Positions 11,534-64,000 are shown, counted from the first letter of the stretch. The stretch: DNA of 64,000 nt from an uncultured Gemmatimonadales bacterium (GCA_963779755.1 CAVZZO010000001.1:2240001-2304000), one strand, 5' to 3'. Notes: a model not told the origin generated them from the sequence alone. Numbers and translations are program-made.

Positions 11534-11614
11534 GGGACAAGGGACAAGGGACAAGGGACAAGGGACAACGGGGACTTAGTGCCTTGTCCCTGGTTCCTTA
11601 TCCCCCTGTGTCCC
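11534..11614 (+). repeat. (GGGACAA)5 heptamer array plus degenerate complementary arm
   Basis: Five perfect copies at 11534-11568, starting immediately after TGA; TTGTCCC/TGGTTCC/TTATCCC/GTGTCCC at 11584-11614. Confidence 0.95.
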
Positions 11615-11666
11615 ACGCCTGCGCCCAGCTATATTTTCCAGCTTTCCTTGTGCGGGAGCAGCGCCT

Positions 11667-12542
11667 TTGCCACGCAGCATGACCGGCTACGGGGCGGCGG
11701 ATGGGAGCGTCGCCGGCGGGCGGTTTGGCGTCGAGATCCGTACCGTCAACCACCGGTATTTCAATCTTTCGCTCAAGGTGCCGTCCGATTTTGCGCCGCT
11801 GGAGGGCGACCTCCGCGAGCTGCTGCGGCGGGAGTTCGAGCGGGGACACGTGTCGGTGTCGCTTCGCTGGACCGAATCGGCGGGCCGGATGATGGCGCCG
11901 CAGCTCAATCTGGAGCGGGCGTACGAGGTGCTGGACGTGCTGCGCCGGCTTCAAACCGAGCTGGGCCTTCCCGGCCAGATCGACGTCTCCATGCTGGCCC
12001 GGCAGCCGGAGGTCATCACCAACGCTGCCACCGAGCCGGAACCGCCGGCCTGGGACGCGGTGGCGCCGGTGGTGCAGGAGGCTGCGCGGGCCTGCAACGA
12101 GATGCGGGTGCGGGAGGGCGACGTCCTGGCCGGGGAGCTCAAGTACCGGCTGGACCTGCTGGAAGCCGGCCTGGAGACGGTCCGGGCGCTGGCCCCGGCC
12201 CGGCTGGTCCGTGAGCGCGACCGGCTGCACCGGTCGGTGGCCTCGCTGCTGGAGGGCGCCGCGCCCGATCCGGACCGGCTGGCGCAGGAGATCGCCCTCC
12301 TGGCCGACCGGCTGGACATCACCGAGGAGCTGGTGCGCTTCGCCGCCCATATCGCGGCGGCGCGCCGGGCGCTGGGGGCGGGCGGCCCCGCCGGCAAGCA
12401 GCTGGGGTTCCTGGCGCAGGAGCTGGGGCGCGAGGTGAACACCATCGGCTCCAAGGCCAACGACGCCGAGATCACCCGGCAGGTGGTGCAGATGAAGGGA
12501 GAGCTGGAGAAGTTCCGGGAGCAACTCGAGAACCTGGAATGA
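11667..12542 (+). CDS. yicC: YicC/YloC family endoribonuclease
   Basis: RSMTGYG, EIRTVNHRY, DITEELVRF, GKQLGFLAQELGREVNTIGSK; upstream of gmk. Confidence 0.95.
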   Translation: MPRSMTGYGAADGSVAGGRFGVEIRTVNHRYFNLSLKVPSDFAPLEGDLRELLRREFERGHVSVSLRWTESAGRMMAPQLNLERAYEVLDVLRRLQTELGLPGQIDVSMLARQPEVITNAATEPEPPAWDAVAPVVQEAARACNEMRVREGDVLAGELKYRLDLLEAGLETVRALAPARLVRERDRLHRSVASLLEGAAPDPDRLAQEIALLADRLDITEELVRFAAHIAAARRALGAGGPAGKQLGFLAQELGREVNTIGSKANDAEITRQVVQMKGELEKFREQLENLE

Positions 12543-13186
12543 GGCCCTTCCTGCTGGTCCTCTCCTCGCCTTCGGGTGGGGGCAAGTCCACCATCGCGCA
12601 CCACCTGCTGCAGGGGCGCGACGACCTGGGCTATTCCGTCTCGGCAACCACCCGCCCCCGGCGGGAGCACGAAGTGGATGGACAGGATTACTTTTTCCTC
12701 TCCCGCGGGGAGTTCGTGGGGCGGCGGGATGCCGGGGAGTTCGTGGAGTGGGCCACCTATTCGGGGCATCTCTACGGCACCCTGCGGAGCGAGCTGGAGC
12801 GGATCTTCGCCGAGGGCCGGCACGCCGTGCTGGATATCGAAGTCGAGGGTGCGCGCCAGGTCCGCAAGCAGTTCCCCAACGCGGTCCACCTCTTCGTGCT
12901 GCCGCCCACCGGCGCGGCGCTGGGGCAGCGACTGCGGGAACGGCGGACCGAAGCGTCTGCGGTGCTGCGCGCCCGGCTGGAACGGGCCGCGGAAGAGCTG
13001 ACCGCGGTGGAGCAGTATGATTACGTCGTGGAGAACGACGATCTGGCGGCGGCGGTGGAGCATGTCGCCGCGGTGATCGACGCCGAAGCGCACCGGGTGG
13101 CCCGGCAGAAGGACCTGGGAGCGCGGATCGAACAATTGCGGCGCGAGGTCGCCGCCGAGGTGGCCCGGATTCCGGAATCCGACTGA
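12539..13186 (+). CDS. gmk: Guanylate kinase
   Basis: SSPSGGGKST, SVSATTRPRR..EVDGQDYFF, YGT. Confidence 0.97.
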   Translation: MRPFLLVLSSPSGGGKSTIAHHLLQGRDDLGYSVSATTRPRREHEVDGQDYFFLSRGEFVGRRDAGEFVEWATYSGHLYGTLRSELERIFAEGRHAVLDIEVEGARQVRKQFPNAVHLFVLPPTGAALGQRLRERRTEASAVLRARLERAAEELTAVEQYDYVVENDDLAAAVEHVAAVIDAEAHRVARQKDLGARIEQLRREVAAEVARIPESD

Positions 13187-13220
13187 CGGCCGCCGTCCTG
13201 CACCAGCAGAGGAGCAGCAG

Positions 13221-20980: not shown

Positions 20981-21009
<29 letters not shown>
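20209..21009 (+). CDS. aroE: Shikimate dehydrogenase
   Basis: HSLSP.MQN, NVTVPFKE, GACNT, NTDVDG, GTGGSARA, INATPVGM. Confidence 0.92.
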
Positions 21010-22808
<1,799 letters not shown>

Positions 22809-22809
22809 G

Positions 22810-22940
22810 GGTGAGCGGTGAGCGGTGAGCGGCGGAATCCTTCCCGGCTTGCCGCTCCCGCGACCCTGTTCCCTGTTCCCTGTTCCCTGTTCCCTGTTCC
22901 CCTTCCCGCTTACTGCTTACCGCTCACCGTTCACCGCCAT
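22810..22940 (+). repeat. Nested heptamer arrays: (GGTGAGC)3 ... (CCCTGTT)5 ... CCGCTYA-like x4-5
   Basis: Arrays at 22810-22830, 22864-22898 and 22906-22940; the outer arms are reverse complements. Confidence 0.95.
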
Positions 22941-24135
22941 GCCCAAACGCACTCTCCAGGATCTTCCGCCCGCCGCCCTCGAGGGCAAGCGCGCGCTGGT
23001 GCGCGTCGACTTCAACGTCCCGTTGAAGGACGGCGCGGTCGCCGACGATATCCGGATCCGTGCCTCCCTGCCGACCATCCGCTATCTGCGGGAACACGGC
23101 GCGCGGGTGGTGCTGCTGTCGCACCTGGGGCGCCCCAGGGGCGGCCCCGATCCGAAATACTCTCTGGCCCCGGTGGCCCACGCGCTGGAGTCCCTGCTGG
23201 GAGCGCCGGTGACGTTCATCGAACATCCGGATCGGCCGGATGCCGTCGCCGCGACCCGGCGCCTCACCCGGGGTGGCGTGGCGCTGGTAGAGAACACCCG
23301 GTTCTTCCCCGGCGAAGAGAAGAACGACCCCGCCACCGCGAAGATGCTGGCGGCGCTGGGCGATTTCTACGTCAACGACGCCTTCGGCTCGGCTCATCGG
23401 GCGCACGCCAGCACCGAAGGGGTGGCCCATCTGCTCAAACCCGCCGTCTCCGGATTCCTGATGGAAAAGGAACTTCAGTTCCTGGGCCACGCGCTGGACC
23501 AGCCCCGGCGCCCCTTCGTGGCGGTCCTGGGTGGGGCGAAAATCTCGGGCAAGATCGACCTGGTCGAGGCGCTGCTGCCCAAGGTGGACGCGATCCTCAT
23601 GGGTGGCGCGATGGCCTGCACCTTCTTCCGGGCCATGGGACTGGAGACCGGTACCTCGCTGGTGGAGGAAGACCGGCTGGATATGGCCCGCGGGCTGATG
23701 CAGAAAGCGGGCGATACGCTGGTGCTGCCGGCCGGCGCGGTGATCGCGCAGGAACTCAAGCCGGGCGTCGAGACCCGCGCCGTGGCGCGTGACGCCATCC
23801 CGCCGGGCTGGGCCATGTATGATATCGATCCGGCCACGGAGCAGGAATTCACCCGGCGCATCCAGTCGGCCGGAACGGTGGTCTGGAACGGCCCCATGGG
23901 CGTCTTCGAGACACCGCCGTTCGACCATGGTACCCGCGCCGTGGCCCAGGCCATGGCCGCCGCCACCGGCAGCGGGACGATCACCGTGGTGGGCGGCGGC
24001 GACTCGGCCGCGGCGGTGGCGGAAGCGGGCCTGAGCGACCGGATGACCCACGTCAGCACCGGCGGAGGTGCCTCCCTGGAGTTCCTGGAGGGCAAGCCGC
24101 TCCCCGGCGTCACGGCACTCGACGACAAGGACTAG
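22939..24135 (+). CDS. pgk: Phosphoglycerate kinase
   Basis: RVDFNVPL, SHLGRP, NDAFGSAHRAHAS, WNGPMGVFE, STGGGASLEFLEG. Confidence 0.98.
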   Translation: MPKRTLQDLPPAALEGKRALVRVDFNVPLKDGAVADDIRIRASLPTIRYLREHGARVVLLSHLGRPRGGPDPKYSLAPVAHALESLLGAPVTFIEHPDRPDAVAATRRLTRGGVALVENTRFFPGEEKNDPATAKMLAALGDFYVNDAFGSAHRAHASTEGVAHLLKPAVSGFLMEKELQFLGHALDQPRRPFVAVLGGAKISGKIDLVEALLPKVDAILMGGAMACTFFRAMGLETGTSLVEEDRLDMARGLMQKAGDTLVLPAGAVIAQELKPGVETRAVARDAIPPGWAMYDIDPATEQEFTRRIQSAGTVVWNGPMGVFETPPFDHGTRAVAQAMAAATGSGTITVVGGGDSAAAVAEAGLSDRMTHVSTGGGASLEFLEGKPLPGVTALDDKD

Positions 24136-24138
24136 CCC

Positions 24139-24879
24139 GTGCTGCTCTTCGCCGCCAACTGGAAGATGCACACCGCGCCGCAGGAGGCGCGGGAGTACCT
24201 GCGCCGGTTTCTCGATCGAACGCCGGCCCGGGAGGACCGGGAGATCTGGTTCTTCCCGCCCGCCGTGTCGCTCGAGGCGGTGGCGGAGGGACTGGCCGGC
24301 CGCAGCGATACCCGGGCCGGCGCCCAGAACGTCTACTGGGAGCCGAAGGGCGCCTTCACCGGCGAGATCTCGGCAGCGCTGGCGCGGGGCGCCGGCGCCA
24401 CCACGGCGCTGGTCGGCCATTCCGAGCGGCGCCACGTCTTCGGCGAGACCGAGAGCGAGACGGCCAAGAAAGTCCGCGCCCTTCTGGAGGCAGGCATGAT
24501 TCCGGTCCTGTGTGTGGGTGAGAAGCTCGAGGAGCGCGAAGCGGACGAGACGGAGAACGTCGTGCTGCGCCAGCTGGGCTCCGCCTGCGCCACACTGCCG
24601 GAGGAGGAATTGCGCCGCGTGGTGATCGCCTACGAGCCGGTCTGGGCCATCGGCACCGGACGCAATGCCACGCCGGCCGACGCGGCCCGGGTCCATGCGG
24701 CCATCCGCTCGGCGCTGCGCGACCGGGGAGCGCCGGATGCGCGAATTCTCTACGGCGGCAGCGTCAACCAGAAGAACATCGCCCAGCTGCTGGCGGAGCC
24801 GGAGATCAACGGCGTCCTGGTGGGCGGGGCCAGCCTCGATCCGGATACCTGGAGCGCGATCACTGGGGGCGCCGGATAA
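24139..24879 (+). CDS. tpiA: Triosephosphate isomerase
   Basis: ANWKM, GAFTGEIS, GHSERR, AYEPVWAIGTG, LYGGSV. Confidence 0.98.
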   Translation: MLLFAANWKMHTAPQEAREYLRRFLDRTPAREDREIWFFPPAVSLEAVAEGLAGRSDTRAGAQNVYWEPKGAFTGEISAALARGAGATTALVGHSERRHVFGETESETAKKVRALLEAGMIPVLCVGEKLEEREADETENVVLRQLGSACATLPEEELRRVVIAYEPVWAIGTGRNATPADAARVHAAIRSALRDRGAPDARILYGGSVNQKNIAQLLAEPEINGVLVGGASLDPDTWSAITGGAG

Positions 24880-24884
24880 CTGCC

Positions 24885-25051
24885 CACCGCGAAGACGCGA
24901 AGGACGCGAAGAACGCGACGAACCGCAAACGACTTTGTGTGGCTGTCACCAATCCCAAATGCTGGTTAGTCCTGCCATGCAGATCAATCTGTATCAGGAC
25001 CCCCAACAGAGTTGTTCTTCGCGTCCTTCGCGCTTTCGCGTCTTCGCGGTG
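24885..25051. mobile_element. MITE-like element: inverted arms of ACGCGAAG-type units around a 99-bp non-coding core
   Basis: Left arm CACCGCGAAGACGCGAAGGACGCGAAGAAC (24885-24914); right arm 25014-25051 is its reverse complement with one extra unit. Mobility is inferred only. Confidence 0.55.
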
Positions 25052-25094
25052 AAAAGCAGTCCTTGGCGTCATTCACGTCCGCGGTTTCGCTCCC

Positions 25095-25123
25095 TTGCCC
25101 TAAGGTGTTCCGGGGATTAGACT
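25095..25123 (+). promoter_or_regulatory. Putative sigma70 promoter of secG
   Basis: TTGCCC-17 bp-TAGACT, ending 10 bp before the ATG. Confidence 0.5.
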
Positions 25124-25133
25124 TTCCGCGCGT

Positions 25134-25535
25134 ATGTATACTTTCTTTCTGATTCTGCTCATCCTCGACGCCATCCTGCTGTCGGTCGTGGTGCTCATGC
25201 AGGCGGGGCAGGGGGGCGGGCTCGCCTCCCTGGGCGGCGGCACCAGCGACATGGTCGTGGGCGGGCGCCAGGCCGTGACCATCCTGACCAAGGCCACCTG
25301 GTGGACCGGCGGCATCTTCCTGTTCCTCTCTCTGCTGCTCTCGGTGCTCTACGCCCATCGGGGCACACCGGGCTCCTCGGCGGTGCAGGAGCAGCTGCAG
25401 CAGACGGCTCCGGTGACGCAGCAAGCGCCTCTTCCCGGCGATAACAACGCCGCCCCGGCCAATGCCGGTGGCGCGCCCACCAGCCAACCGCAGGCTCCGG
25501 CGCAACAGCCGGCGACGCCGCCCAAGCAGCCTTGA
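25134..25535 (+). CDS. secG: Preprotein translocase subunit SecG
   Basis: Two TM helices, VLMQAGQGGGLASLGGG, LTKATW; follows tpiA. Confidence 0.95.
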   Translation: MYTFFLILLILDAILLSVVVLMQAGQGGGLASLGGGTSDMVVGGRQAVTILTKATWWTGGIFLFLSLLLSVLYAHRGTPGSSAVQEQLQQTAPVTQQAPLPGDNNAAPANAGGAPTSQPQAPAQQPATPPKQP

Positions 25536-25581
25536 CGGCGCTGGTCTTCCCCAGCCGGGGAATGCGACGCGGGGGGGCCCG

Positions 25582-26697
25582 GTGAGCGGCCGCCCCGCGT
25601 TCGTGCTGCTGGAGGACGGCACCTGGTTTTCGGGCTCGCTGGTCTTCCCCTCCGGGCCCGCCTTCGGTGAGGTGGTCTTCACCACCAACCTGAGCGGCTA
25701 CCAGGAGACGTTCACCGATCCCAGCTATCTGGGCCAGATCGTCGTGATGACGGCTCCCATGATCGGCAACTACGGTATCAACCCCGAGGACATGGAATCG
25801 GGCCATCCGCAGATCAGCGGCGTGGTGGTGCGCGAGCTGGCCCGGCACCCCTCCAACTGGCGCTCCACCAGGCCGCTGGGGGAATGGCTGCACGAGGCCG
25901 GCATCCCGGTGCTGGAAGAGGTCGATACCCGGCGTCTCACCCGGCACATCCGCGAGCGGGGCGCCATGCGCGGCGTGATCGCCGAAGGGCTCGAGCCCAC
26001 CCGTGAGCTGATCGGGCAGCTGCAGGCCTCACCCCGCATGGACGGGCTCGACCTGGCCTCCCGCGCCACTGTCGACCAGCCGGTGACCGAAGGCAGCGGG
26101 CCTCACGTGGTCGCTGTCGACTACGGCATGAAGCGCAATATCGTGCGCATGATGGTGCAGCTGGGACTCAAGGTGACCACCGTCCCCTCGACCACCACCG
26201 CTGCCGCGATCCGGGCTCTGCAACCGGACGGGCTCTTTCTCTCCAACGGCCCCGGCGATCCCTCTGCGGTTGACTATGCGTTCAGCACGATCCGGGAGCT
26301 CGCCGAGTCCGAGCTCCCGACCTTCGGGATCTGCCTGGGGCATCAGCTTATCGGCCTGGCGTTCGGAGGAAAAACGGTCAAGCTCCCCTATGGTCATCGC
26401 GGTGGCAATCATCCGGTGCGCGAGTTGGCGACCGGGCGAGTACTGATCACGTCCCAGAACCACGGATTTGCCGTCGCCGGGGGGCCGGAGGGCATTCCAG
26501 GGGCTCCTGACCTGGAGGTCACCCACCTCAATCTGAACGACGGTACGGTCGAAGGACTGCGCCACCGGAGCCTCCCACTATTCGCTGTTCAGTACCATCC
26601 GGAGGCCTCTCCAGGGCCCCATGATGCCTACCCCCACTTTGCCGAGTTCCTGCGGCTGCTGCGGTCGCGGAGTGCCTCCGGCGCCCCAACCCCTTGA
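25582..26697 (+). CDS. carA: Carbamoyl-phosphate synthase small subunit
   Basis: LLEDGT, GEVVFTT, TDPSY.GQI, LSNGPGDP, GICLGHQ, SQNHGF, QYHPEASPGPHD. Confidence 0.97.
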   Translation: MSGRPAFVLLEDGTWFSGSLVFPSGPAFGEVVFTTNLSGYQETFTDPSYLGQIVVMTAPMIGNYGINPEDMESGHPQISGVVVRELARHPSNWRSTRPLGEWLHEAGIPVLEEVDTRRLTRHIRERGAMRGVIAEGLEPTRELIGQLQASPRMDGLDLASRATVDQPVTEGSGPHVVAVDYGMKRNIVRMMVQLGLKVTTVPSTTTAAAIRALQPDGLFLSNGPGDPSAVDYAFSTIRELAESELPTFGICLGHQLIGLAFGGKTVKLPYGHRGGNHPVRELATGRVLITSQNHGFAVAGGPEGIPGAPDLEVTHLNLNDGTVEGLRHRSLPLFAVQYHPEASPGPHDAYPHFAEFLRLLRSRSASGAPTP

Positions 26698-26722
26698 CAG
26701 TCAACAGGTAAGCTCGTAGCAT
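26694..26722 (+). promoter_or_regulatory. Sigma70 promoter of the HU gene
   Basis: TTGACA (26694-26699), 17 bp, TAGCAT (26717-26722); the -35 overlaps the carA TGA. Confidence 0.75.
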
Positions 26723-26780
26723 AGCCACTGGGTTCCCTCTCCGCGGGGTACCCTGTTGGTGTGACCTCCAGGGGGGATTA

Positions 26781-27107
26781 ATGACCAAAGCCGATCTCGT
26801 GGAGAAGGTGACGGAGTCCATCGCCCGCACATCCGGGCCCATGATCTCGAAGAAGGACTGCGCCCGCGTGGTGGACGCCTTCCTCGATGCGATCAAGGAG
26901 GCATTGCGTCAGCAGCAGAACATTGAGGTGCGCGGGTTTGGCACGTTCAAGATCCGGCGCCGCAAGACCCGCATGGCGCGCAACCCTCGCACCGGCGAGC
27001 CGGTCGAAGTCGCGGCCCGTCCGGTTCCCGTCTTCAAGCCCAGCAAGGAGTTGCGTGGGCTGGTAGCGGAGGCCGAAGAGAATGTGCCGGCCGAACCTTC
27101 CGCGTGA
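26781..27107 (+). CDS. HU/IHF family DNA-binding protein
   Basis: MTKADLVE, IEVRGFGTF, RMARNPRTGE, PVFKPSKELR. Confidence 0.96.
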   Translation: MTKADLVEKVTESIARTSGPMISKKDCARVVDAFLDAIKEALRQQQNIEVRGFGTFKIRRRKTRMARNPRTGEPVEVAARPVPVFKPSKELRGLVAEAEENVPAEPSA

Positions 27108-27128
27108 GGCTCGGCAGGCGCAGTTCCG

Positions 27129-27156
27129 GGGGGCCCTTGGGGCCCCCTTTTATTTT
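27129..27156 (+). terminator. Rho-independent terminator after the HU gene
   Basis: GGGGGCCC-TTG-GGGCCCCC followed by TTTTATTTT. Confidence 0.85.
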
Positions 27157-27233
27157 CAAGTGAGATTGCAGAGGGATACGGGCCAGTGACGACGACATCT
27201 TCTCCCCAGCCTGCCGGCACGACCGGCACCATT

Positions 27234-27476
27234 ATGGTGACGGTGCGGCTCTTTGCGCGTTACGCCGACGTGCTGGGGACGGAAGCGGTGGTCCTGAACG
27301 TGCCGGCAGGCGCGACGGTGGCGGATGCGCTCCAGTGGTTACGGCAGCAGATGCCGGCGGCGCAACAGCTTCCCCGGCAGCCACTCTGCGCCGTTGGCCT
27401 GAAGCAGGTGCTCCGGGAGCACGTGCTGGCCGATGGCGATGAGCTGGCGCTGCTGCCCCCGGTGGCCGGTGGCTGA
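27234..27476 (+). CDS. moaD: Molybdopterin synthase sulfur carrier (start 27186 or 27234)
   Basis: VRLFA...; C-terminal GDELALLPPVAGG. Confidence 0.92.
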   Translation: MVTVRLFARYADVLGTEAVVLNVPAGATVADALQWLRQQMPAAQQLPRQPLCAVGLKQVLREHVLADGDELALLPPVAGG

Positions 27477-27477
27477 C

Positions 27478-27924
27478 ATGTACCTCACTCGAGCTCCCCT
27501 CGACCTGGCCGCGCTGATGGCGCGGGTCCAGGCGCCGGAGCGTGGCGGGACCGCGCTGTTTCTGGGCACGGTACGCGACCACCACGCCGGGCGGCAGGTC
27601 GTGGGCCTGGAGTACAGCAGCTACGAGGAGATGGCCGAGGCAGAGTGTGATCGCATCGTCCGGGAGGCGGAAGGCCGCTGGCCCGTCGCCCTGGCGGTGC
27701 AGCACCGGCTGGGCGCCCTGGCGATCGGCGATGCGGCGGTGGCGGTGGCGGCCGCGTCGGCGCACCGGGATGCCGCCTTCGAGGCGGCGCGCTGGGTGAT
27801 CGAGGCGTTGAAGCAGCGGGTGCCGATCTGGAAGCGGGAACGCTACGCCGATGGATCGATTGCCTGGGTCGATCCCACCTCCGCATCCGGCATCGCATCC
27901 GCGCCCATGGTGGAAGACACATGA
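27478..27924 (+). CDS. moaE: Molybdopterin synthase catalytic subunit
   Basis: FLGTVRD, LEYSSY, HRLG, SAHR..AF, KQRVPIWKRE. Confidence 0.95.
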   Translation: MYLTRAPLDLAALMARVQAPERGGTALFLGTVRDHHAGRQVVGLEYSSYEEMAEAECDRIVREAEGRWPVALAVQHRLGALAIGDAAVAVAAASAHRDAAFEAARWVIEALKQRVPIWKRERYADGSIAWVDPTSASGIASAPMVEDT

Positions 27925-28943
27925 GCACCGCGCTCGACCGCCTGGGCCGGCCGCTGGGAAGCCTGCGGCTTTCGGTGACCGACCGATGCAATCTCCGCTG
28001 CCGCTACTGCATGCCGGAGGAGCACTACGTATGGCTGCCGCGCTCCGCCCTGCTCAGCTACGAAGAAATGACCCGGCTGGCGGGGATCTTCGCCGGCCTG
28101 GGCGTGCACAAGGTGCGGCTCACCGGCGGCGAGCCGCTGCTGCGGCACGATCTGCCCGTCCTCATCGAGCAGTTGCGTACCGACCGTCGCCTGCGGGATC
28201 TGGCGCTCACCACCAACGGGCTGCTGCTGGCCCAGCAGGCGGAGGCGCTGCACGCGGCGGGCCTGGACCGGGTGACGGTGAGCCTCGACACCCTCTCGCC
28301 CGGGAAGCTCAAGGCGTTTGCCCGGACCACCCGTCATGGCGACATCCTGCGCGGGCTTGCCGCCGCCCGGGACCTGGCGTTTCCGCTCAAGCTCAACACC
28401 GTGGTCATCCGCGGCTTCAACGACGATGAACTGGAGGACCTGCTCGAGTTCGGCCGCGGCCTCGATGCCGAGGTCCGGTTCATCGAGTACATGGACGTGG
28501 GCGGCGCCACCCGCTGGTCGATGGACGAGGTCGTTACCAGGGAAGAGATGCTGCGGCGCCTGGCGCGCCGCTATGGACCGATCGAGCCGATCCCGGCGCA
28601 GGGGCCGGCGCCGGCCGAACGTTTCCGGCTGCCCGACGGCAGCAGCTTCGGCATCATTGCATCCACCACGGCGCCCTTCTGCCGCTCCTGCGATCGGAGC
28701 CGCCTGACCGCCGACGGAACCTGGTATCTCTGTCTTTACGCCCCGGAGGGCGTGGATCTGCGGGAGCCGCTGCGCGCCGGCGCCAGCGACGCCGAGCTGG
28801 CGGGAATTATCCGGCAGACCTGGGCGCAGCGGGTCGACCGCGGGGCCGAGCAGCGCGCTGCCACCACCGGCCGGGAGGCGCTGTATCAGATCGACACCCT
28901 CCGCGCCGACCCGCGCCGGGAAATGCATACGCGGGGCGGGTGA
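27921..28943 (+). CDS. moaA: GTP 3',8-cyclase (radical SAM)
   Basis: LRLSVTDRCNLRCRYCMP, LTGGEP, FCRSCDRSRLTADG..CL, C-terminal GG. Confidence 0.97.
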   Translation: MSTALDRLGRPLGSLRLSVTDRCNLRCRYCMPEEHYVWLPRSALLSYEEMTRLAGIFAGLGVHKVRLTGGEPLLRHDLPVLIEQLRTDRRLRDLALTTNGLLLAQQAEALHAAGLDRVTVSLDTLSPGKLKAFARTTRHGDILRGLAAARDLAFPLKLNTVVIRGFNDDELEDLLEFGRGLDAEVRFIEYMDVGGATRWSMDEVVTREEMLRRLARRYGPIEPIPAQGPAPAERFRLPDGSSFGIIASTTAPFCRSCDRSRLTADGTWYLCLYAPEGVDLREPLRAGASDAELAGIIRQTWAQRVDRGAEQRAATTGREALYQIDTLRADPRREMHTRGG

Positions 28944-28966
28944 GCTTTCCCCCCGGCGTTCCCTGG

Positions 28967-29054
28967 CAGGAATCAGGAATCAGGAGTCAGGAATCAGGGG
29001 TCAGGGGACCTTGGTTTCCGCCTTACCGTCTTACCGTCTTGCCGTCTTGCCGCC
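28967..29054 (+). repeat. CAGGART-like x6 heptamer array followed by (CCGYCTTR)4 octamer array
   Basis: Arrays at 28967-29008 and 29018-29054. Confidence 0.9.
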
Positions 29055-29071
29055 ACTCTGCCCACTCTTAC

Positions 29072-29551
29072 ATGCTCCACATCGCGCTGCTCGAGCCGCA
29101 GATCCCGCCCAACACCGGCAATATCGCCCGTCTCGCCGCCGCGACCGGTGCCAGCCTGCACCTGGTCGAACCGCTGGGCTTCTCACTGGACGAGGCGGAG
29201 TTGAAGCGGGCCGGGCTGGACTACTGGGATGCGGTCGATCTCTGGGTTCATCCGCACTGGCGCGGCTTCCGGGACGCCATGAGCCGGGAACGATGTCTCT
29301 ACTTCTCGGCGCACGGCCGGAAGAACTTCTGGCGCGCGCCCTACCGGGCGAACAGCTGCCTGGTGTTCGGCAGCGAAACCCAGGGCATGCCGGCCCGGAT
29401 CCTGGAGAAGTATCCCGAGCGGTGCTATCGCATTCCGATGAGCGGGCCGGTCCGGAGCCTCAATCTGGCGACGGCGGTGGGTATCGTGCTGTACGAGGCG
29501 TTGCGGCAGACGGGCTTGGGGGAGGACCGGCCGGCCGCGGACCGGCCCTGA
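29072..29551 (+). CDS. trmL: tRNA (cytidine/uridine-34-2'-O)-methyltransferase
   Basis: PQIPPNTGNIAR, LKRAGLDYW, FGSETQG, RSLNLA. Confidence 0.95.
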   Translation: MLHIALLEPQIPPNTGNIARLAAATGASLHLVEPLGFSLDEAELKRAGLDYWDAVDLWVHPHWRGFRDAMSRERCLYFSAHGRKNFWRAPYRANSCLVFGSETQGMPARILEKYPERCYRIPMSGPVRSLNLATAVGIVLYEALRQTGLGEDRPAADRP

Positions 29552-29615
29552 TCCGGTGCGTGGCGAGCGCGGGCCACGGAGCCGAGGCTCCGTGGCCCTG
29601 GTCGTGCCCGCAGCC

Positions 29616-30041
29616 CTATTGCATTACGACGTAGACGGGGTTCCGCAGGGCGGCCGCCATGCGGGCGGCGGTGGTGAGGCTGCCGCGCAGGGCCTCGGCG
29701 CCCGGCTCCGCCGGGGAGACGACGGTGGCGTGGCGCAGCGCGGTGCCGCCCGCCGCGCAGGTCACCTTGATGTTCATGGGGGTGTAGATCCCCAGGGTGA
29801 GGGCGCCGACCAGCCCGTTGAGGAAGCTCTGTTGCGTCTCCACTTTCGCGACGCCGCTGGAACACTTCTCGGCGGCCTGCACTGTCTTCGGCGGGACCAG
29901 GCCATAGATCCAGGCGGAGGCGAAGGGCTGCTCCAGCGTCACGGTGGAGGGCGTGAGGCCCGTTTCCACGGTGGCATGGTAGCAGGCGGGCAGCAGGCAC
30001 AGGCCCGCGGCGGCGAGACCGAACGCGCGAAGCGAGGACAT
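29616..30041 (-). CDS. Bor/Iss family lipoprotein
   Basis: Lipobox LPAC-YHATV; WIYGLV...C..GVAKVETQQSFLNGLVGALTLGIYTP..IKVTC. Confidence 0.85.
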   Translation of the reverse strand: MSSLRAFGLAAAGLCLLPACYHATVETGLTPSTVTLEQPFASAWIYGLVPPKTVQAAEKCSSGVAKVETQQSFLNGLVGALTLGIYTPMNIKVTCAAGGTALRHATVVSPAEPGAEALRGSLTTAARMAAALRNPVYVVMQ

Positions 30042-30219
30042 GGGCGCACTCCTGGGATGGGGGATGGCGACCTTCTGCACCAAGGTTGCGTCGATCTGCG
30101 GGGCCCGCAAGCGCGGGCAAGTGGAAAGCGCCGCCCGATCCGGTTAGTTTCCGCGCGCCTGCCCTGGGGGCGGGCTTCACACTTCGCATCGCTCCTTCAG
30201 ACGCGAGAGAGCGTTCGCA

Positions 30220-31149
30220 ATGTTCAAGAAGATTACCGTCGTCGGCGCCGGGAACGTGGGCGCCACCGCGGCCCAGCGGCTGGCCGAGAAGAGCCTGGCC
30301 CGGACCGTGGTCATGCTGGACGTCCTCGAAGGCATTCCGCAGGGCAAGGGGCTGGATCAGTGGGAATCGGCCCCCATCGAAGGATTCGACACCCGGGTGG
30401 TTGGCAGCAACACCTACGACGATGCCGCCGGGTCGGAGCTGTTCATCGTGACCGCCGGCATCGCCCGCAAGCCGGGCATGAGCCGCGACGACCTGGTCAA
30501 GACCAACGTCGGCATCGTGAGCTCGGTGGCGGGGGAGATCAAGCGGGTCGCCCCGAAATCCATGGTCATCGTGGTCTCCAATCCGCTGGATGTGATGTGC
30601 CACGTCATGCGCCAGGCAACCGGCTTTCCCCGGGAGCGGGTGTTCGGCATGGCCGGGGTGCTCGACACCGCCCGGTACCGCTCCTTCCTGGCCGAGGCGC
30701 TGGACGTCTCGGTCGATGACATCCAGGCCATGGTACTGGGCGGCCACGGCGATACCATGGTGCCGCTGGTGTCGTATACGACGGTCTCCGGAATCCCGGT
30801 GCGCCAGCTGCTCAGGCCCGAGGCCCTCGATGCCATCGTCGACCGCACCCGAAAGGGCGGGGCGGAAATCGTCGGCTATCTCAAGACCGGCTCGGCCTAT
30901 TACGCGCCCAGCGCAGCCGCGGTGCAGATGGCGGAGGCGATCGTGCTCGACCGCAAACGGATCCTCCCGTGCTCGGCCTGGCTGCAGGGGGAGTACGGAC
31001 TGTCGGACGTCTATTGCGGGGTACCGTGCAAACTGGGCGCCGGCGGGCTGGAGCAGATCATCGAGGTCGAGCTGACCGATCCGGAGCGCCAGGCGCTGCA
31101 GCAGTCGGCGGCGGCGGTCCGCGAGACGGTCAAGGCGGCGGGGGTCTAG
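30220..31149 (+). CDS. mdh: Malate dehydrogenase (LDH-like)
   Basis: [41 protein letters not shown]. Confidence 0.97.
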
Positions 31150-31169
31150 GCGCGAACAGCGGAGCTGGC

Positions 31170-31838
31170 ATGGTCTCGTTCGGTTCGTTCTATCGTTCGA
31201 CGGTCGGCAAGAAGGTCATCATGGCGGTCACCGGGGTGATCCTGGTGGGGTTCATTATCGCCCATGTCGCCGCCAATCTGCAGGTCTTCTCCGGCAGTCC
31301 CGACAAGCTGGATGCCTACGCCCGGTTCCTCCGCAGTACGGGCGAGCTGCTCTGGGTGGCGCGGGCCATCCTGCTGGTGTCGGTCATCCTGCATATCGAT
31401 GCCGCCTGGAAGCTCACCCGGCGGAGCCACGCGGCCCGGCCGGTGGGCTACCAGCGAAAACGCCACGAAGCGGCCACCCTCGCCTCCCGCACCATGCGCT
31501 GGGGCGGGGTGCTGCTGCTGGCGTTTATCATCTACCACCTGCTGCATTTTACCTTCGGCGTTGCCCACCCGACCTGGCCCAATTTCAACCACACTACGGT
31601 CTACCGGAACATCATCATCGGGTTCCAGAACCCCTGGGTGGTGCTGTTCTATGAGGCGGGCCTGCTGGCGCTCGGGCTGCATCTCTACCACGGCATGCAG
31701 AGCATGCTGCTCTCTCTCGGCCTCACCAATCCGCGGTGGCTGGTTGTCTGGAAGCGGCTGGCGGTGACCGTCGCCGTCCTGGTGGCGGTCGGGTTCCTGG
31801 TCATTCCGCTCGCGGTCTATTTCGGGGTGGTGTCATGA
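31170..31838 (+). CDS. sdhC: Succinate dehydrogenase cytochrome b subunit
   Basis: STVGKK.IMAVTG, five TM helices with heme His residues; upstream of sdhA. Confidence 0.92.
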
Positions 31839-33748
31839 AGCTCGATCCACGGGTGCCGGCCGGTCCGCTGGAGCAGAAGTGGGACCAGCACCGCTTCCAG
31901 CTCAAGCTGGTGAATCCGGCCAACAAGCGGAAATACAACGTCATCATGGTGGGCAGCGGGCTGGCGGGCGCCTCGGCGGCGGCCAGCCTGGGCGAGCTGG
32001 GCTACAACGTGCAGTGCTTCTGCTTCCAGGACTCGCCCCGCCGGGCCCACAGCATCGCCGCGCAGGGCGGCATCAATGCGGCCAAGAATTACCAGAACGA
32101 CGGCGACAGTGTCTTCCGCCTGTTCTACGATACGGTCAAGGGGGGCGACTTCCGCAGCCGGGAAGCCAATGTCTACCGGCTGGCGCAGGTCAGCGTCAAC
32201 ATCATCGACCAGTGCGTGGCCCAGGGCGTGCCCTTCGCGCGGGAATACGGCGGATATCTCGCCAACCGTTCGTTCGGCGGGGCGCAGGTGTCGCGGACGT
32301 TCTATGCCCGGGGCCAGACCGGCCAGCAGCTTCTGCTGGGCGCCTATCAGGCGCTGGAACGGCAGATCGCCGACGGGAAGGTCACCATGTATCCGCGGAC
32401 CGAAATGCTCGATCTCATCGTGGTGGACGGCCACGCCCGCGGCATCGTGACCCGGAACCTGGTGACCGGGGCGGTCGAGGCGCACCTGGCCGACGCCGTG
32501 GTGCTGGGCACCGGCGGCTACGGCAACGTGTTCTATCTCTCCACCAACGCCAAAGGCAGCAACTGCACCGCCGCCTGGCGCGCCTACCGGCGGGGCGCCG
32601 CCTTCGCCAACCCCTGCTATACCCAGATCCACCCGACCTGCATTCCGGTGAAGGGGCACTACCAGTCGAAGCTCACCCTGATGAGCGAATCGCTCCGCAA
32701 CGATGGCCGCGTGTGGGTGCCGAAGCAGAAGGGCGACAAGCGTCCGCCCAACGACATCCCCGAGGCCGAGCGCGACTACTACCTGGAGCGGAAGTACCCC
32801 AGCTTCGGGAACCTGGCCCCCCGCGACATCGCGTCCCGCGCCGCCAAGGAAGTATGCGATGAAGGCCGGGGTGTGGGCGAGTTCGGGCACGGGGTCTATC
32901 TCGATTTTGCCGACGCCATCCGCCGGCTGGGGCGCCAGGCCATCGCGGAACGCTACGGCAACCTCTTCGAGATGTACGAGCGCATCACCGATGAGGATCC
33001 TTACCGGGTGCCGATGCGCATCTACCCGGCGGCCCATTACACCATGGGCGGGCTGTGGGTGGACTATGATCTCATGAGCACCATCCCGGGCCTCTTCGTG
33101 ATCGGCGAAGCGAACTTCTCCGATCACGGGGCCAACCGGCTGGGCGCCAGCGCGCTGATGCAGGGCCTGGCCGACGGCTACTTCGTGCTGCCCTATACCA
33201 TCGGAAACTACCTGGCGCAGACCAAGCCGGGGACGGTCGCGGCGGACCACCCCGCCGTGCGGGAGGCGGAGGAGGCGGTGGCCGAGCGGACCCGCCGCCT
33301 GCTGGCGATCAACGGGACGCGCACGGTCGATTCGATCCACCGGGAGCTGGGGAAGCTCATGTGGGACTACTGCGGCATGGCCCGCGACGAGGCGGGGCTG
33401 CACCATGCGCTGGAAGAGATTCCCAAGATCCGGCACGAGTTCTGGACCAATGTCCGGGTACTGGGGAAGGACGAGGAGCTCAACCAGTCGCTGGAGAAGG
33501 CCGGCCGGGTGTCCGATTTCCTGGAGCTGGCCGAGCTGATGTGCCGTGACGCGCTGCATCGCACGGAATCCTGCGGTGCGCATTTCCGGACTGAAAGCCA
33601 GACGCCCGACGGCGAAGCCCGGCGCGACGACGAACATTTCAGCTACGTCGCGGCCTGGGAGTACCAGGGAGACGACCGCCCGCCGGAGCTGCACCGGGAA
33701 CCGCTGGAATTCGAGCGGGTGCAGTTGAGCACGAGGAGCTACAAGTGA
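31835..33748 (+). CDS. sdhA: Succinate dehydrogenase/fumarate reductase flavoprotein
   Basis: [46 protein letters not shown]. Confidence 0.97.
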
Positions 33749-33776
33749 GGGACCAGGGACCAGGGACCAGGGACAG
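33749..33776 (+). repeat. (GGGACCA)3 GGGACAG array in the sdhA-sdhB spacer
   Basis: Begins immediately after the sdhA TGA. Confidence 0.92.
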
Positions 33777-33785
33777 AGGATACCG

Positions 33786-34559
33786 ATGAACCTTACGCTT
33801 TATGTCTGGCGCCAGCCCGGTCCCGAGGCTCCGGGGAAGCTGGTCAAATACGACGCCCGGGACATCAGCGATGAAATGAGCTTCCTGGAGATGCTCGACG
33901 TGGTCAACGAGGGGCTCATCGAGTCGGGCCAGGAGCCGATCGCGTTCGACAGCGACTGCCGCGAGGGCATCTGCGGCTCCTGCGGGCTCATGATCAACGG
34001 CATGGCGCACGGGCCGCTCCAGGGGACCGCCACCTGCCAGCTGCACATGCGCAGCTTCAAGGACGGCGACACCATCTATATCGAGCCCTGGCGGGCCCGG
34101 GCCTTTCCGGTCCTCAAGGACCTGGTGGTCGACCGGAGCGCGCTCGACCGGATCATCGCCTCCCGCGGCTACATCACCGCCCGCACCGGCAGCGCGCCCG
34201 ACGCCAACAGCATTCTGATCGGCAAGGACGATGTAGAGCGGGCCATGGACGCGGCAGCCTGCATCGGCTGCGGCGCCTGTGTCGCCGCCTGTCCCAACGC
34301 CTCCGCCATGCTCTTCACCGCCAGCAAGGTGACGCACCTGGGCCTGCTGCCCCAGGGACAACCGGAGCGGGCCCGGCGCGCCCTGGAGATGGTCGATCAG
34401 ATGGATGCCGAGGGCTTCGGCGGCTGCACCTGGTTCGGCGAGTGCCAGGAGGCGTGTCCCAAGGAGATCCGCATCGAAGTGATCTCCCGGATGTACCGCG
34501 ACTACCTGCGCTCCAGCGTCGGCAGCCGCGCCGATGCGGCGGTGGCCGGCGGGAGCTGA
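33786..34559 (+). CDS. sdhB: Succinate dehydrogenase iron-sulfur subunit
   Basis: [33 protein letters not shown]. Confidence 0.97.
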
Positions 34560-42082: not shown

Positions 42083-42150
42083 CGGCAGGACGGCAGCACG
42101 GCAAGACGGCAGGGCGGCAAGACGGCAAGACGGCAGGACGGCAAGACGGC
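42083..42150. repeat. CGGCARGA-like x8.5 octamer array
   Basis: Eight units plus CGGC, with about two more units near 42194-42210; reverse complement of the 29018 octamer. Confidence 0.93.
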
Positions 42151-42219
42151 CCTAAAGGACTTCCTCGCGGCTTTCTATTGGAGGCCGCTCGGTCGCAGGA
42201 CGGCAGGACGCCGCCCTGT

Positions 42220-42819: not shown

Positions 42820-42915
42820 GGGAGATGGGGGAACCGGGAAGGGGGAACGGGGGAATGGGCCCTCACCGGCAGGCACGATCGCCCCTTTCCCGATTCCCCT
42901 TTGCCCGTTCCCCGT
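42820..42915. repeat. Paired G-rich/C-rich degenerate heptamer arms in the dcd/nuoA divergent region
   Basis: GGGGAAC-like units at 42820-42859; CCCCTTT/CCCGATT/CCCGTT units at 42882-42915. Confidence 0.8.
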
Positions 42916-47715: not shown

Positions 47716-47787
47716 GGGAACAGGGAAACGGGAAAAGGGAACAGGAGCCGGCGTCGGCCGCTTCCCGCTTCCCCTTTCCCTTTTCCC
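47716..47787. repeat. Paired heptamer arrays (GGGAAMM)4 and (NYTTCCC)4 between nuoF and nuoG
   Basis: GGGAACA GGGAAAC GGGAAAA GGGAACA ... GCTTCCC GCTTCCC CTTTCCC TTTTCCC. Confidence 0.92.
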
Positions 47788-47810
47788 GCAGTCACGGGCA
47801 AGGAGCAACG

Positions 47811-60932: not shown

Positions 60933-60994
60933 GGCGGCTTGTTCCCCCTCTGGGCCGGCACTAGGTTCCCGGCCTCTCGCGCCGGAGCCGAACG

Positions 60995-61945
60995 ATGACG
61001 GCAGGACGCACCGCGGTCGTGGCCCTCGGCGGCAATGCGTTGGCGCGCTCGGGCGAGCCCGCCACGATCACCAACCAGTTCCGCCACACCCGCGAGAGTC
61101 TGGACCCGATCGTCGCGCTGGTGCGGGAAGGGTGGCGGGTGGCGCTGGTGCACGGGAACGGGCCGCAGGTGGGCGACGAGCTGGCCCGCAACGAGCTGGC
61201 GCGCGGCGTGGTGGAGCCGCTACCCCTGGGGGTGCTGGTCGCGGGGACCGCCGGCTGGATCGGCTACATGATCCAGCAGTCGCTGCAGAACGCGCTGGCG
61301 CGCGCCGGCATCAGCCGCGACGTCGTGACCCTGGTGACGCAGACGCTGGTCGATCCGGACGACGCGGCGCTGGCGGAGCCGAGCAAACCGATCGGGCACG
61401 CGGTGTCTCCGGATGAAGCCGCGCGGCTGCGAGGGCTCGGCCTCCCCCTGGCGCAGGATGCCCGGGGCCGCTGGCGCCGGCTGGCCGCGAGCCCGGCGCC
61501 CCTCGCCATTCCGGAGGCGGCCGTCATCGGGCGCCTGGTGGCGGACGGCACCATCGTCGTCGCCGGCGGCGGCGGCGGGCCGCCGGTGTACCGCGATCCG
61601 GTGCTCGGGCTGGAAGGCCTGGACGCGGTGGTGGACAAGGACCGGCTGGCCGCCGTGCTGGCGGCCGGCCTGGGAGCGGACGTGCTTCTGATCCTGACCG
61701 ACGTAGACGCGGTCTACCGGGGGTACGGAACGCCGGCGGAGGCGCCCATCCGGCGGCTCACGCTGGCGGAGGCCGACGCCCTGTTGCAGGGCTCGGAGCT
61801 GGCCGGCGGCAGCATGCGGCCCAAGGTCCAGGCCGCCGCCGATTTCGTACGGGGCGGAGGCGCGCGGGCGGTGATCGCGCACCTGGCCGATGGCCTGGCC
61901 GCCCTTCGCCATGAGGCGGGAACTCTGATCACGAGGGAAACGTGA
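60995..61945 (+). CDS. arcC: Carbamate kinase
   Basis: [47 protein letters not shown]. Confidence 0.93.
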
Positions 61946-63081
61946 ATCTCTACGAGTACCAGGGGCGGGAGCTGTTCACCGCCGGCGGCATTGCGATGCC
62001 GGACGGCGATGTGGCGGCGACCCCCGACGAAGCGGAAGCCATCGCCCGCCGGCTGGGCGGGACGGTGGTCATCAAGGCGCAGGTACATGCCGGCGGGCGG
62101 GGCAAGGCGGGCGGCGTCAAGCTGGCGAAGACGCCGGCCGAGGCGCGGGAGCACGCCGGCCGCATCCTGGGCATGACCATCAAGGGACTGGTGGTGCGGC
62201 GGGTGCTGGTGGTGCCCGCGGCGGATATCGCCAGCGAGGCCTATGCCGGCATCGTAATGGACCGCGAGAGCCAGCGCCCGGTGTTCATGGTGAGCGCCGC
62301 GGGCGGTGTGGACATCGAGGAAGTGGCGGCAAAGACTCCGGAGAAGATCACCCGGCTGCCGGTGGATCCGCGCTACGGGCTCCTGCCGCATCAGGCGATG
62401 GGGCTGGCCTTTACGCTGTACCAGGACATCAGGCAGGTCCGGGCCGCGGCCCGCATCCTGGAGCAGCTGTACGGGGTCTTCACCGCGAACGGCGCGTCGC
62501 TCACCGAGATCAACCCGCTCGTCACCACGCCGGACGGCGCGGTGCTGGCGCTCGACGCCAAGGTGGTGATCGACGACAACGAGCTGGACCGCCGGCCCGA
62601 TCTGGCCGCCTTGCGCGACGAAGAGGCCGAGGAGCCGAGCGAGGTGGAGGCACGGGGGGCCGGCCTCACGTTCATCAAGCTCACCGGCAACGTGGGCTGC
62701 GTGGTGAACGGGGCGGGGCTGGCCATGGCCACCATGGACCTGGTGAAGTACTACGGCGGCGAGCCCGCCAACTTCCTGGATATCGGCGGCAGCTCCAATC
62801 CGGAGAAGGTGGTGAGCGCGCTGCGGATCATCACCGCCGACACCGACGTGAAGGCCATTCTCTTCAATATCTTCGGCGGGATTACGCGAACCGACGACGT
62901 GGCCAACGGGATCGCGGCCGCGCTCAAGCAGATCGAGGTCAAGGTGCCCATCGTGGTGCGGCTCACCGGGACCAACGAAGCCGAGGCGGTGAAAATCCTC
63001 CAGGGCATCGGCATGACGGCCCTCAACGATATGGACGACGCGGTCAAGCAGGTGGTCCGGGTCGCGCAGGAGGCCGCATGA
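61942..63081 (+). CDS. sucC: Succinyl-CoA synthetase beta subunit
   Basis: [44 protein letters not shown]. Confidence 0.98.
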
Positions 63082-63956
63082 GCATCTTCATCGACGCGAA
63101 CACCCGGCTGGTGGTGCAGGGCATCACGGGGCGGGACGGTTCCTTCCACACCCGGCAGATGATCGACTACGGGACCAGGGTCGTCGCCGGCGTGACCCCC
63201 GGGAAGGGCGGCCAGAAGGTGCTGGACGGCGTGCCGGTCTTCGATACCGTGGCTCAGGCGGTGAAGGAAACCGGGGCGAACACTTCGGTCATCTACGTAC
63301 CCGCCGCCTTCGCCGCCGCGGCCATCTATGAGGCCGCCGACGCCGGGATCGGATTCATCGTCTGCATCACCGAGGGCGTGCCGGTCATGGACATGACCCG
63401 GGTGATGCCCTACCTGCGGGAGCGGAACGTCCGCCTGCTGGGGCCCAACTGCCCCGGACTCATCACGCCGGGCGTCTGCAAGGTCGGCATTATTCCCGGC
63501 AATATCTGCGCGCGGGGACGCGTGGGGCTGGTCTCGCGCAGCGGAACGTTGACCTACGAAGTCGTGAACCAGCTCACCCGGGCCGGCATCGGGCAGAGCA
63601 CCTGCGTCGGCATCGGCGGCGATCCCATCATCGGGACCAATTTCATCGATTGTCTGTCCGGCTTCGAAGGGGATCCCGGTACCGACGCCGTGGTCATGAT
63701 CGGGGAAATCGGCGGGACGGACGAGCAGAAGGCGGCGGAGTTCGTCAAGTCTTCAATGAAGAAGCCGGTGGTCGGCTTCATCGCCGGCCAGACCGCGCCC
63801 AAGGGGCGGCGAATGGGCCATGCCGGCGCCATCATCAGCGGATCGTCCGGCACCGCGGAAGAGAAGATCGCGGCCTTCGAAGCGGCCGGGATCGGGGTCA
63901 TGAAGCGGCCGGCGGATGTGGTGGAATTGATCAGGGCGGTGAGCGGTAAGCGGTAA
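63078..63956 (+). CDS. sucD: Succinyl-CoA synthetase alpha subunit
   Basis: [34 protein letters not shown]. Confidence 0.98.
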
Positions 63957-64000
63957 GCGGTGAGCGGGCGCGCACCTCCACCTTCGGTGCGTGCCCGCTC
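63936..64000 (+). repeat. (GCGGTRA)4 array overlapping the sucD stop, followed by a hairpin running off the window
   Basis: GCGGTGA GCGGTAA GCGGTAA GCGGTGA; then GAGCGGGCGCGCACC...GGTGCGTGCCCGCTC. Confidence 0.9.

Follow-up and report, generated by a model that had tools for sequence, protein, structure and literature searches.

Hairpin-forming short tandem arrays in a Gemmatimonadales genome and their association with PF05635 and GxxExxY genes

The window considered here is a stretch of 64,000 nucleotides (nt) (C1:2240001-2304000; GCA_963779755.1, CAVZZO010000001.1) from an uncultured soil bacterium of the Gemmatimonadales, whose genome comprises 4.23 Mb at 68.6% G+C and is 97% complete. It carries tandem arrays of 7-nt units, and most of those listed in a preliminary description, made from the sequence alone, form the 5' half of a long imperfect hairpin, as judged by reading and folding of the DNA. 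Typically, a purine-rich array on or just 3' of a stop codon is followed by a short loop and then by a pyrimidine-rich, degenerate reverse complement. With confidence that stops a little short of even, these modules are taken to be part of a family of tandem repeats, spread over the whole genome and able to form hairpins, that is set up and kept at the DNA level, and to be the gene-less form of an inverted-array bracket. That bracket encloses nearly every PF05635 gene, mostly with 7-mers, and about half of the GxxExxY (PF13366) genes, with 8-11-mers. This tie of arrays to PF05635, and of 8-11-mers to GxxExxY, is the best-supported new point; as a repeat class, the arrays are a many-unit, hairpin-rich form of a described and unexplained kind. 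To our knowledge, an excess of heptamers in bacterial genomes has been noted since 2007 with no accepted cause. For PF05635, a family of wide distribution, two structures have been solved, but we know of no function.

The preliminary description had proposed that similar heptamer arms flank four-helix-bundle genes of the PF05635/23S-IVP kind in other genomes, and this held across the order, where 71 of 76 such genes were bracketed against 14 of 650 controls. PF05635 is present in 54 of the 61 genomes of the order, and a gene was scored as bracketed when the inverted repeat enclosing it reached a score of at least 30. The first sample, which combined the eight local genes with the top-scoring match from each of 29 genomes, had 34 of 36 genes bracketed, with the purine arm first by 25:1; one further locus (L149) was left out of the count because the orienting motif was not found, though it is bracketed. 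The second sample took the next 40 matches by E-value, passing over two that lay too close to a contig start (G060:C10 and G057:C35), and had 37 of 40 bracketed, 27 of them with tandem arrays in both arms and the purine arm first by 21:1. In the control sets, brackets were scored at 11 of 300 small genes from this genome and at 3 of 350 windows drawn at random from other genomes.

This genome contains eight PF05635 genes, along with one fragment. Complementary arrays enclose seven of these genes, with the purine arm on the left whatever the orientation of the gene, and at the eighth a reading of the flank indicates that the right side was replaced by an IS3-like gene. Compared with the first of them, the paralogues are 25-39% identical, and no two use the same bracket unit; GGTGAGC and GGCGGCAG are among these units. 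All PF05635 matches of the genome fall outside the window, none inside it, and the window modules share the arm type only. Outside the order, the single PF05635 gene of Xanthomonas euroxanthea and that of Luteimonas sp. R10 each sit inside a GGGAATN/NATTCCC pair, at what looks from the flanks like the accB-accC junction, and most of the PF05635 genes examined in Moorena have clear inverted arrays on both sides. Protein identity within PF05635 was correlated with similarity of the bracket unit (Mantel r 0.32, a value reached by 0 of 2000 permutations). In a comparison between genomes, the DNA sampled from six with PF05635 had 18, 12, 8, 5, 1, and 0 period-7 arrays (80-100 kb each), and that from seven without it had 1, 1, 0, 0, 0, 0, and 4 (20-100 kb each); the 4 come from 59 kb of a genome with 74% G+C, and their units consist of G and C only. 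As for the protein itself, a profile search found the solved relatives 2GSC (XCC0516) and 2RLD, with five chains each and no named function; a single PF05635 protein used as query found no solved relative. Literature searches joining the family names with repeats returned no paper linking PF05635 with repeats, and a search on Gemmatimonadota heptamers returned nothing relevant. PF05635 genes are noted to occur inside cas operons in the accessible part of one report (Zhang et al., PMC3936711).

The expectation that predicted nuclease open reading frames (ORFs) would also be found between such arms was borne out by a second family, GxxExxY, which has inverted-repeat brackets at 15 of 28 loci. 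The units of these brackets are 8-11 nt long and of the CACGGAGA/CGCGAAGA type. None of the 13 GxxExxY brackets has period 7, compared with 42 of the 63 tandem brackets around PF05635 genes (Fisher p 6e-6, with kin among the loci not independent). The bracket unit and its period follow the cargo family.

Genome-wide, the arrays are pervasive, non-random and far beyond chance. With three copies as the minimum, the genome has 193 perfect arrays of period 7, against 13, 21, and 1 at periods 5, 6, and 10, a comparison set beforehand as the refuting test and one in which the excess holds; a further 86, 28, and 11 arrays have periods 8, 9, and 11, and a 1-Mb order-3 Markov simulation produced 0 arrays at every period of 6 or more. 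The claim of a constant 7-bp period did not hold, because periods 8, 9, and 11 take part in the same phenomenon, including in the window at 24888 (9), 29018 (8), and 42083 (8). The claim that the unit differs from locus to locus did not survive: 318 perfect arrays reduce to 82 unit types, individual ones of which are found at 40, 29, 23, and 22 loci, the largest families being GGACTGA, CAGGAAT, GGTGAGC, and GCAGGACG. Intergenic status, as assigned with a crude GC3-based gene caller, applied to 362 of 465 non-redundant period-7 arrays, with an intergenic share of the genome of 17%, and 605 of 3320 gene gaps contain at least one array of period 7-9. Outside this genome, at least 125 stretches carry the exact pattern (GGGAATC)x4; their sources include Gemmatimonadaceae, Xanthomonadales, filamentous cyanobacteria, and Acidobacteriota and cover at least six phyla. 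The assembly of a Thermoplasmata archaeon contains the same pattern too, as does Vibrio jasicida, the genome of the latter having no PF05635 match.

The preliminary description had also proposed that a complementary arm often follows and that the purine arm starts at or near a stop codon; both features are general, and the positional and strand-polarity bias that had been set as a test was found in the form of intergenic excess, stop adjacency, and purine-first order. A reverse-complement arm within 200 nt (score of at least 24) accompanies 229 of 426 intergenic period-7 arrays, compared with 64 for a control in which the query was complemented only; at an alignment score of 30 the figures are 166 and 22. 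Purine arms have their partner on the 3' side by 143:26 and pyrimidine arms on the 5' side by 150:23, such that the order of the arms is chiral and strand-symmetric. After 72 arrays of a separate CAGATT 9-mer family were set aside, the others gave 176 non-redundant modules, of which 168 could be classed; the purine arm comes first in 147 of these (92:12 for codirectional gaps, 37:4 for convergent ones, and 18:5 for divergent ones). A sense purine arm lies between -10 and +8 nt of a stop codon 161 times and a pyrimidine arm 29 times. The stop codon of the gene is inside the array in 61 (purine) versus 4 (pyrimidine) cases, a point of relevance for annotation in that an array supplies the stop codon of 61 genes of this genome. 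Stop triplets occur in 24% of units overall, equal to shuffled units, and are raised only in stop-adjacent arrays (39% versus 19%). Two candidate causes of the chirality were rejected. Adjacency to stop codons cannot be the sole cause, as the chirality persists in divergent gaps (18:5), and avoidance of Rho predicts a sense-purine bias in unpaired arrays, where 132 versus 118 were observed.

Relatives, the nearest of which by GAPDH are Gemmatimonadales assemblies at 78% identity, were compared at three junctions. The gap-pgk spacer is at most 14 nt or overlapping in 26 of 29 relatives, and the closest relative has an 82-nt hairpin of another unit; inspection of 20 named assemblies by eye gave the same picture. 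At sdhA-sdhB the spacer is at most 14 nt in 22 of 26 relatives, with a 94-nt module in one genus, and at nuoF-nuoG it is at most 14 nt in 23 of 29, with a GCCNTAA-type module common to two genera and a short GGGGACG array in one. These spacer lengths are approximate, being extrapolated from tblastn ends, and one assembly (G014) supplies one tight locus each to gap-pgk and nuoF-nuoG, without which the counts are 25 of 28 and 22 of 28. The modules appear as additions of 80-130 nt where the genes of most relatives are tightly spaced or overlap. They are therefore lineage-specific additions at places where translation is usually coupled. Empty, array-only, and gene-filled states had been anticipated among relatives; the first two were seen, but the gene-filled state was not seen at the three junctions. 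Contigs from three soil runs, compared with 21500-41400 of the window, gave only short identical pieces of the same organism together with conserved genes of others.

REPIN-RAYT systems, reportedly described by Bertels and Rainey in 2011, are said to consist of hundreds of intergenic hairpin-forming repeats and a protein gene bracketed by its own repeat. The present arrays resemble them in combining many intergenic hairpin repeats with a bracketed protein gene, but differ in that the arms are tandem microsatellites of many units and the cargo is PF05635 or GxxExxY rather than a Y1 transposase. Since the arrays are tied to PF05635 and the 8-11-mers to GxxExxY, a REPIN-like, protein-linked origin is placed first, ahead of plain slippage, a function in RNA, and quadruplexes in that order, although it is held at slightly less than even confidence. 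Under such an origin the elements would spread or be renewed by a REPIN-like process, in which the protein encoded within a bracket may recognize its own repeat unit. For the host they might be near-neutral filler to which only sites outside reading frames are open, the purine arm lying beside stop codons. If the link between gene and repeat holds, it offers a specific protein whose action on a known DNA or RNA ligand can be tested, and a gene that can be deleted while turnover of the repeats is tracked.

Several observations weigh against a protein-linked origin. No mobility enzyme was identified, and PF05635 has no known activity. The 97%-complete genome has no match to reverse transcriptase (RVT_1), by which a telomerase-like or retroelement origin was also rejected. 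Its three Y1 transposase (PF01797) genes have no 7-9-mer arrays in their flanks, by which a REP/RAYT system in the strict sense was set aside. The geometric copy-number curve fits plain slippage equally well. The Mantel signal comes partly from orthologous pairs, and vertical descent of the whole locus would give the same result, while the genome-level association covers 13 related genomes with 20-100 kb sampled in each. Two genomes, with 11 (G059) and 3 (G045) PF05635 genes, are almost without free arrays; a PF05635 gene is therefore not sufficient. Loci that have a unit in common have no loop sequence in common. Finally, the inner flanks of seven PF05635 and two GxxExxY cassettes have no second copy in the genome (11 queries, self matches only). 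The window arrays had been described as empty, non-autonomous copies, a proposal that is not sustained: because the cassette inner flanks are unique, the gene-less modules are not internal-deletion copies of the tested cassettes. An origin by internal deletion, like that of miniature inverted-repeat transposable elements, was accordingly rejected, as no sequence is shared with the cassettes beyond the terminal repeats.

A rival explanation, which we regard as unlikely though the strongest of the alternatives, is that the modules are plain palindromic microsatellites. Polymerase slippage would favor units of 7-9 nt in these lineages, template switching across the nascent hairpin would create and repair the partner arm, no dedicated protein would be required, and small cargo genes would merely sit, or survive best, inside hairpins that form anyway. 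Much of the behavior of the arrays agrees with this account. Once an array is present its copy number behaves like slippage, the perfect 7-mer arrays of 3 to 7 copies numbering 93, 45, 26, 10, and 3, or approximately halving with each step in a geometric distribution. A perfect arm may face a decayed one, the complementarity of the arms is strand-symmetric, as is the mismatch spectrum, and units are replaced between genera at the same junction. Where PF05635 occurs in array-poor genomes, its brackets consist of long inverted repeats that are not tandem, as though a tandem makeup belonged to the genome and not to the cassette. Slippage is also the explanation of the heptamer excess quoted in the accessible text of an earlier study (PMC4692102, from its reference 33). 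However, independent origins are hard to reconcile with one unit at 22-40 loci in one genome or with (GGGAATC)x4 in at least six phyla, and modules arise where the genes of relatives overlap, with no spacer to seed slippage. The period depends on the cargo family, the chirality has no explanation in slippage, and in the DNA sampled from six of the seven genomes without PF05635, including two at 69-70% G+C, there is one period-7 array or none. Every one of the 61 genomes of the order has MutL; loss of mismatch repair thus does not split array-rich from array-poor genomes and was rejected as well.

It is less probable still that the modules are host RNA elements, with stems serving as RNase III sites, as stabilizers of mRNA, or as bidirectional terminators lacking a U-tract, much as the stems of 23S intervening sequences do. 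Pyrimidine RNA on purine DNA is the weakest type of RNA-DNA hybrid, and purine-first order would leave exactly this hybrid behind a finished hairpin. The modules lie in transcribed spacers, between the cistrons of gap-pgk, nuoF-nuoG, and sdhA-sdhB, in the 23S-5S spacer of the rRNA operon of this genome (-53.2 kcal/mol, z -2.8), and between putative tRNA genes, and period-7 arrays are somewhat rarer in divergent than in convergent gaps (46 in 567 versus 87 in 567). In addition, the part of a recent preprint that was available states that RNase III cuts 23S intervening sequences (10.1101/2024.02.27.582315). Nonetheless, selection on a transcript stem would favor G.U over A.C pairs, and the equal counts on the sense strand of 109 codirectional modules (G.U 106 versus A.C 103, with 112 transversions and 2648 Watson-Crick pairs) argue against an RNA-level stem under selection, as do those on the gene-sense strand of PF05635 brackets (41 versus 41). 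Unpaired arrays show no sense bias (132 versus 118), the chirality is the same in divergent gaps, and no module has a T-run. A terminator search over 21000-40999 called no module, the modules there not having the G+C-rich hairpin with U-run of an intrinsic terminator, and found one canonical terminator at 27128-27148. Sites before 5S rRNA and in essential operons exclude strong termination. The RNA-level system suggested in the preliminary description is accordingly not supported, neither a wobble bias nor a sense-strand bias being seen. We conclude from these patterns that the modules are probably tolerated in transcripts and that their complementarity would be set at the DNA level.

Very improbable is a role as G-quadruplex or i-motif elements acting on DNA or RNA, as proposed for the heptamers of Xanthomonas and Nostoc: some units are of the GGGNNNN form (GGGACAA, GGGACCA, GGGAATC), such repeat oligonucleotides form quadruplexes in vitro according to the available text of PMC4692102, and a GGG unit is present in at least four copies in 141 of 723 arrays, but only 292 of the 723 have GGG in the unit, the largest families named above have none, and a complementary arm would compete with folding.

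With respect to known systems, the preliminary description had spoken of an undescribed system, a word too strong for the arrays themselves, since convergent heptamer pairs of Xanthomonas and Nostoc (PMC4692102) and paired sites of Geobacter (PMC2700814) are in print. In the accessible part of the former report, the GGGAATC repeats of X. campestris and X. axonopodis are 89-93% intergenic, nearer to the upstream ORF, and rarer between divergent genes, with 70-75 convergent inverted pairs whose site is kept while length and sequence vary between close species; the Nostoc repeat is GGGGA(C/T)T, and quadruplexes are proposed (Rehm et al., 2015; PMC4692102). The present arrays are alike in their tandem 7-nt units, overwhelmingly intergenic location, over-representation relative to neighboring periods, convergent inverted pairs of the same chirality, and proximity to the upstream ORF, and a Xanthomonas-like GGGAATC-type unit is itself present in this genome. 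They differ in having 82 unit types with no single GGGANTN-like consensus, most of them unable to form three-tetrad quadruplexes, and in the participation of periods 8, 9, and 11. The accessible portion of that account does not mention PF05635. The paired sites of Geobacter metallireducens (classes 1-3) comprise three to five units of 7-9 nt on opposite strands at variable distance, with 16-48 sites per class, and are interpreted, in the part of the paper available, as sites to which global regulators yet to be identified would bind (Aklujkar et al., 2009; PMC2700814). These are also paired tandem units of 7-9 nt, but in the same part no cargo gene is named; a term search of the supplements gave no cargo-gene names, although the supplements may already show them.

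The STRR of filamentous cyanobacteria are tandem intergenic heptamers of several unit types. Compared by description only, they are like the present arrays in these respects and belong to a different phylum; the name comes from a Calothrix report cited in the accessible text of PMC4692102. The 23S rRNA intervening sequences carry a PF05635 ORF whose IVP domain is uncharacterized, according to the available parts of two sources (10.1101/2024.02.27.582315; PMC3936711), and are similar in placing a PF05635 gene in a stem of inverted repeats within transcribed, essential contexts, whereas the window modules are gene-free and lie between protein genes. No large 23S intervening sequence was found in this genome: its 23S gene, at 2971 nt, matches the LSU model of 2925 positions over its full length without a break. 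A bolder synthesis can be put forward, with more doubt than is attached to slippage. In it, PF05635 proteins would be sequence-specific binders of short tandem repeats, each paralogue recognizing its own bracket unit and, with the help of host replication or repair, seeding and renewing arrays of it at gene junctions, in the manner of REPIN-RAYT without a transposase; GxxExxY would be a sister system on 8-11-mers; and STRR, the Xanthomonas heptamers, the Geobacter sites, and the ORF-bearing 23S intervening sequences would all be one system.

Within the window (Table 1), arrays were detected with Tandem Repeats Finder, hairpins by reading and by folding of the DNA, and flanking genes with Pfam. 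Each of the 11 array sites listed earlier matches a period-7 array. Pfam likewise upheld the placement of arrays inside conserved operons, identifying gap-pgk-tpi, sdhA-sdhB, and nuoF-nuoG, with nuoA, dcd, and sucD as additional neighbors. Six of 12 folded stretches (from 11525, 22800, 37015, 39840, 42810, and 47700) form a single long purine-then-pyrimidine hairpin at -35 to -75 kcal/mol, and a seventh, at 24870, which is that of the arm pair at 24888-25048, was absent from the earlier list. The units of this pair are of the class found around GxxExxY genes elsewhere. Also missing from that list was the octamer array at 42083-42210. The sdhA-sdhB array starts on the last base of the sdhA stop codon and reaches the ribosome-site region of sdhB (ATG 33786).

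Table 1. Tandem arrays and hairpin modules of the window (positions counted from its first nucleotide)
Feature	Position	Units and copies	Folding energy (kcal/mol)	Remarks
Hairpin module after stop of TonB-receptor-like gene	11533-11616	Purine arm (AGGGACA)x5.1, 11533-11568	-47.7 (over 11525-11625)	Purine arm 100% matches
Pyrimidine arm of the 11533 module	ends ~11616			Degenerate
Unpaired array in gap leader	21748-21780	(GCAACTA)x4.7	-15.6	No hairpin
Nested module in gap-pgk spacer	22810-22937		-54.2	Fills the 130-nt spacer
gap-pgk outer purine arm	22810-22832	(GGTGAGC)x3.3		100% matches
gap-pgk inner array	22864-22901	(CCCTGTT)x5.4		100% matches; unpaired
gap-pgk outer pyrimidine arm	22902-22937	(CTTACCG-like)x5.1		Ends 1 nt before pgk ATG at 22939
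9/8-mer arm pair 3' of tpi	24888-25048	(CGCGAAGAA)x4.1 + (CTTCGCGTC)x3.8	-103.1	Loop ~94 nt, gene-free
Purine array, then non-cognate pyrimidine octamer array, 3' of MoaA-like gene	28967-29052	(CAGGAAT/CAGGAGT)x5.6, 28967-29005; (CCGTCTTA)x4.4		
Array-only state, sdhA-sdhB	33748-33774	(AGGGACC)x3.9		100% matches; without pyrimidine arm
Hairpin between convergent genes	37025-37078	(AGGCGTA)x2.9, 37025-37044 + (TACCTCT)x3.7, 37053-37078	-34.9	Stop codon at both ends
Nested hairpin between convergent genes	39848-40008	GAAACGG, 39877-39906; ACGTCTC, 39955-40002	-75.4	
Octamer array with dispersed element	42083-42210	(CGGCAAGA)x8.5; (GCAGGACG)x2		44-nt element at 42151-42194
Hairpin in divergent dcd/nuoA gap	42827-42915	(GGGGGAAC)x4.4, 42827-42859 + (CCCCGTT)x4.9, 42882-42915	-69.2	
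Hairpin between nuoF and nuoG	47716-47789	(GGGAAAA)x4.3, 47716-47745 + (CCGCTTC)x4.6, 47758-47789	-51.4	
Purine arm containing sucD stop codon	63936-64000	(GCGGTAA/GCGGTGA)x4.6, 63936-63967		Pyrimidine arm from ~63995, past window end

The 44-nt dispersed element in the octamer array has a 20-nt core present in 32 genome copies, with octamer-like words flanking 29 of them on both sides. Similar small dispersed repeats lie within the heptamer arrays of cyanobacteria; a literature search on cyanobacterial dispersed repeats gave nothing relevant. The next gene after the first module encodes a YicC-like endoribonuclease (11667-12542), probably by coincidence. Gene callers extend starts through pyrimidine arms, as the crude caller did for pgk, whose real start is 22939. 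Long open frames cross pyrimidine arms at 22825-22938 and 28940-29052, where automatic over-extension is likely.

Elsewhere in this genome (G000), the PF05635 fragment (C1:1473999-1474148; model positions 4-53, with one in-frame TGA) adjoins an (AGGCGGGA)x6.9 array and looks like a decaying cassette. The 23S-5S spacer (L161:5461-5537; C3:61460-61536) contains a 9-mer purine-then-pyrimidine hairpin, (GGTCAAGAA)x3.8/(CTCGACCCC)x3.7, and at C3:706531-706853 octamer (AGACGGCA) hairpin modules separate sequences read as tRNA genes. A palindromic element of approximately 110 nt lies 3' of several GGACTGA arrays (C1:47578, 1263439, and 1532287; C3:742266; and others), and two further REP-like elements lie 3' of GGTGAGC and GGACTGA arrays. 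Outside the window, C1:708300-711000 holds a run of ~270-nt repeats, each with a 130-nt unit that is attC-like by reading; these units are bracketed by the inverted 9-mers CGCAGATTA/TAATCTGTG, and the same 9-mers bracket a GxxExxY gene at C3:1465509.

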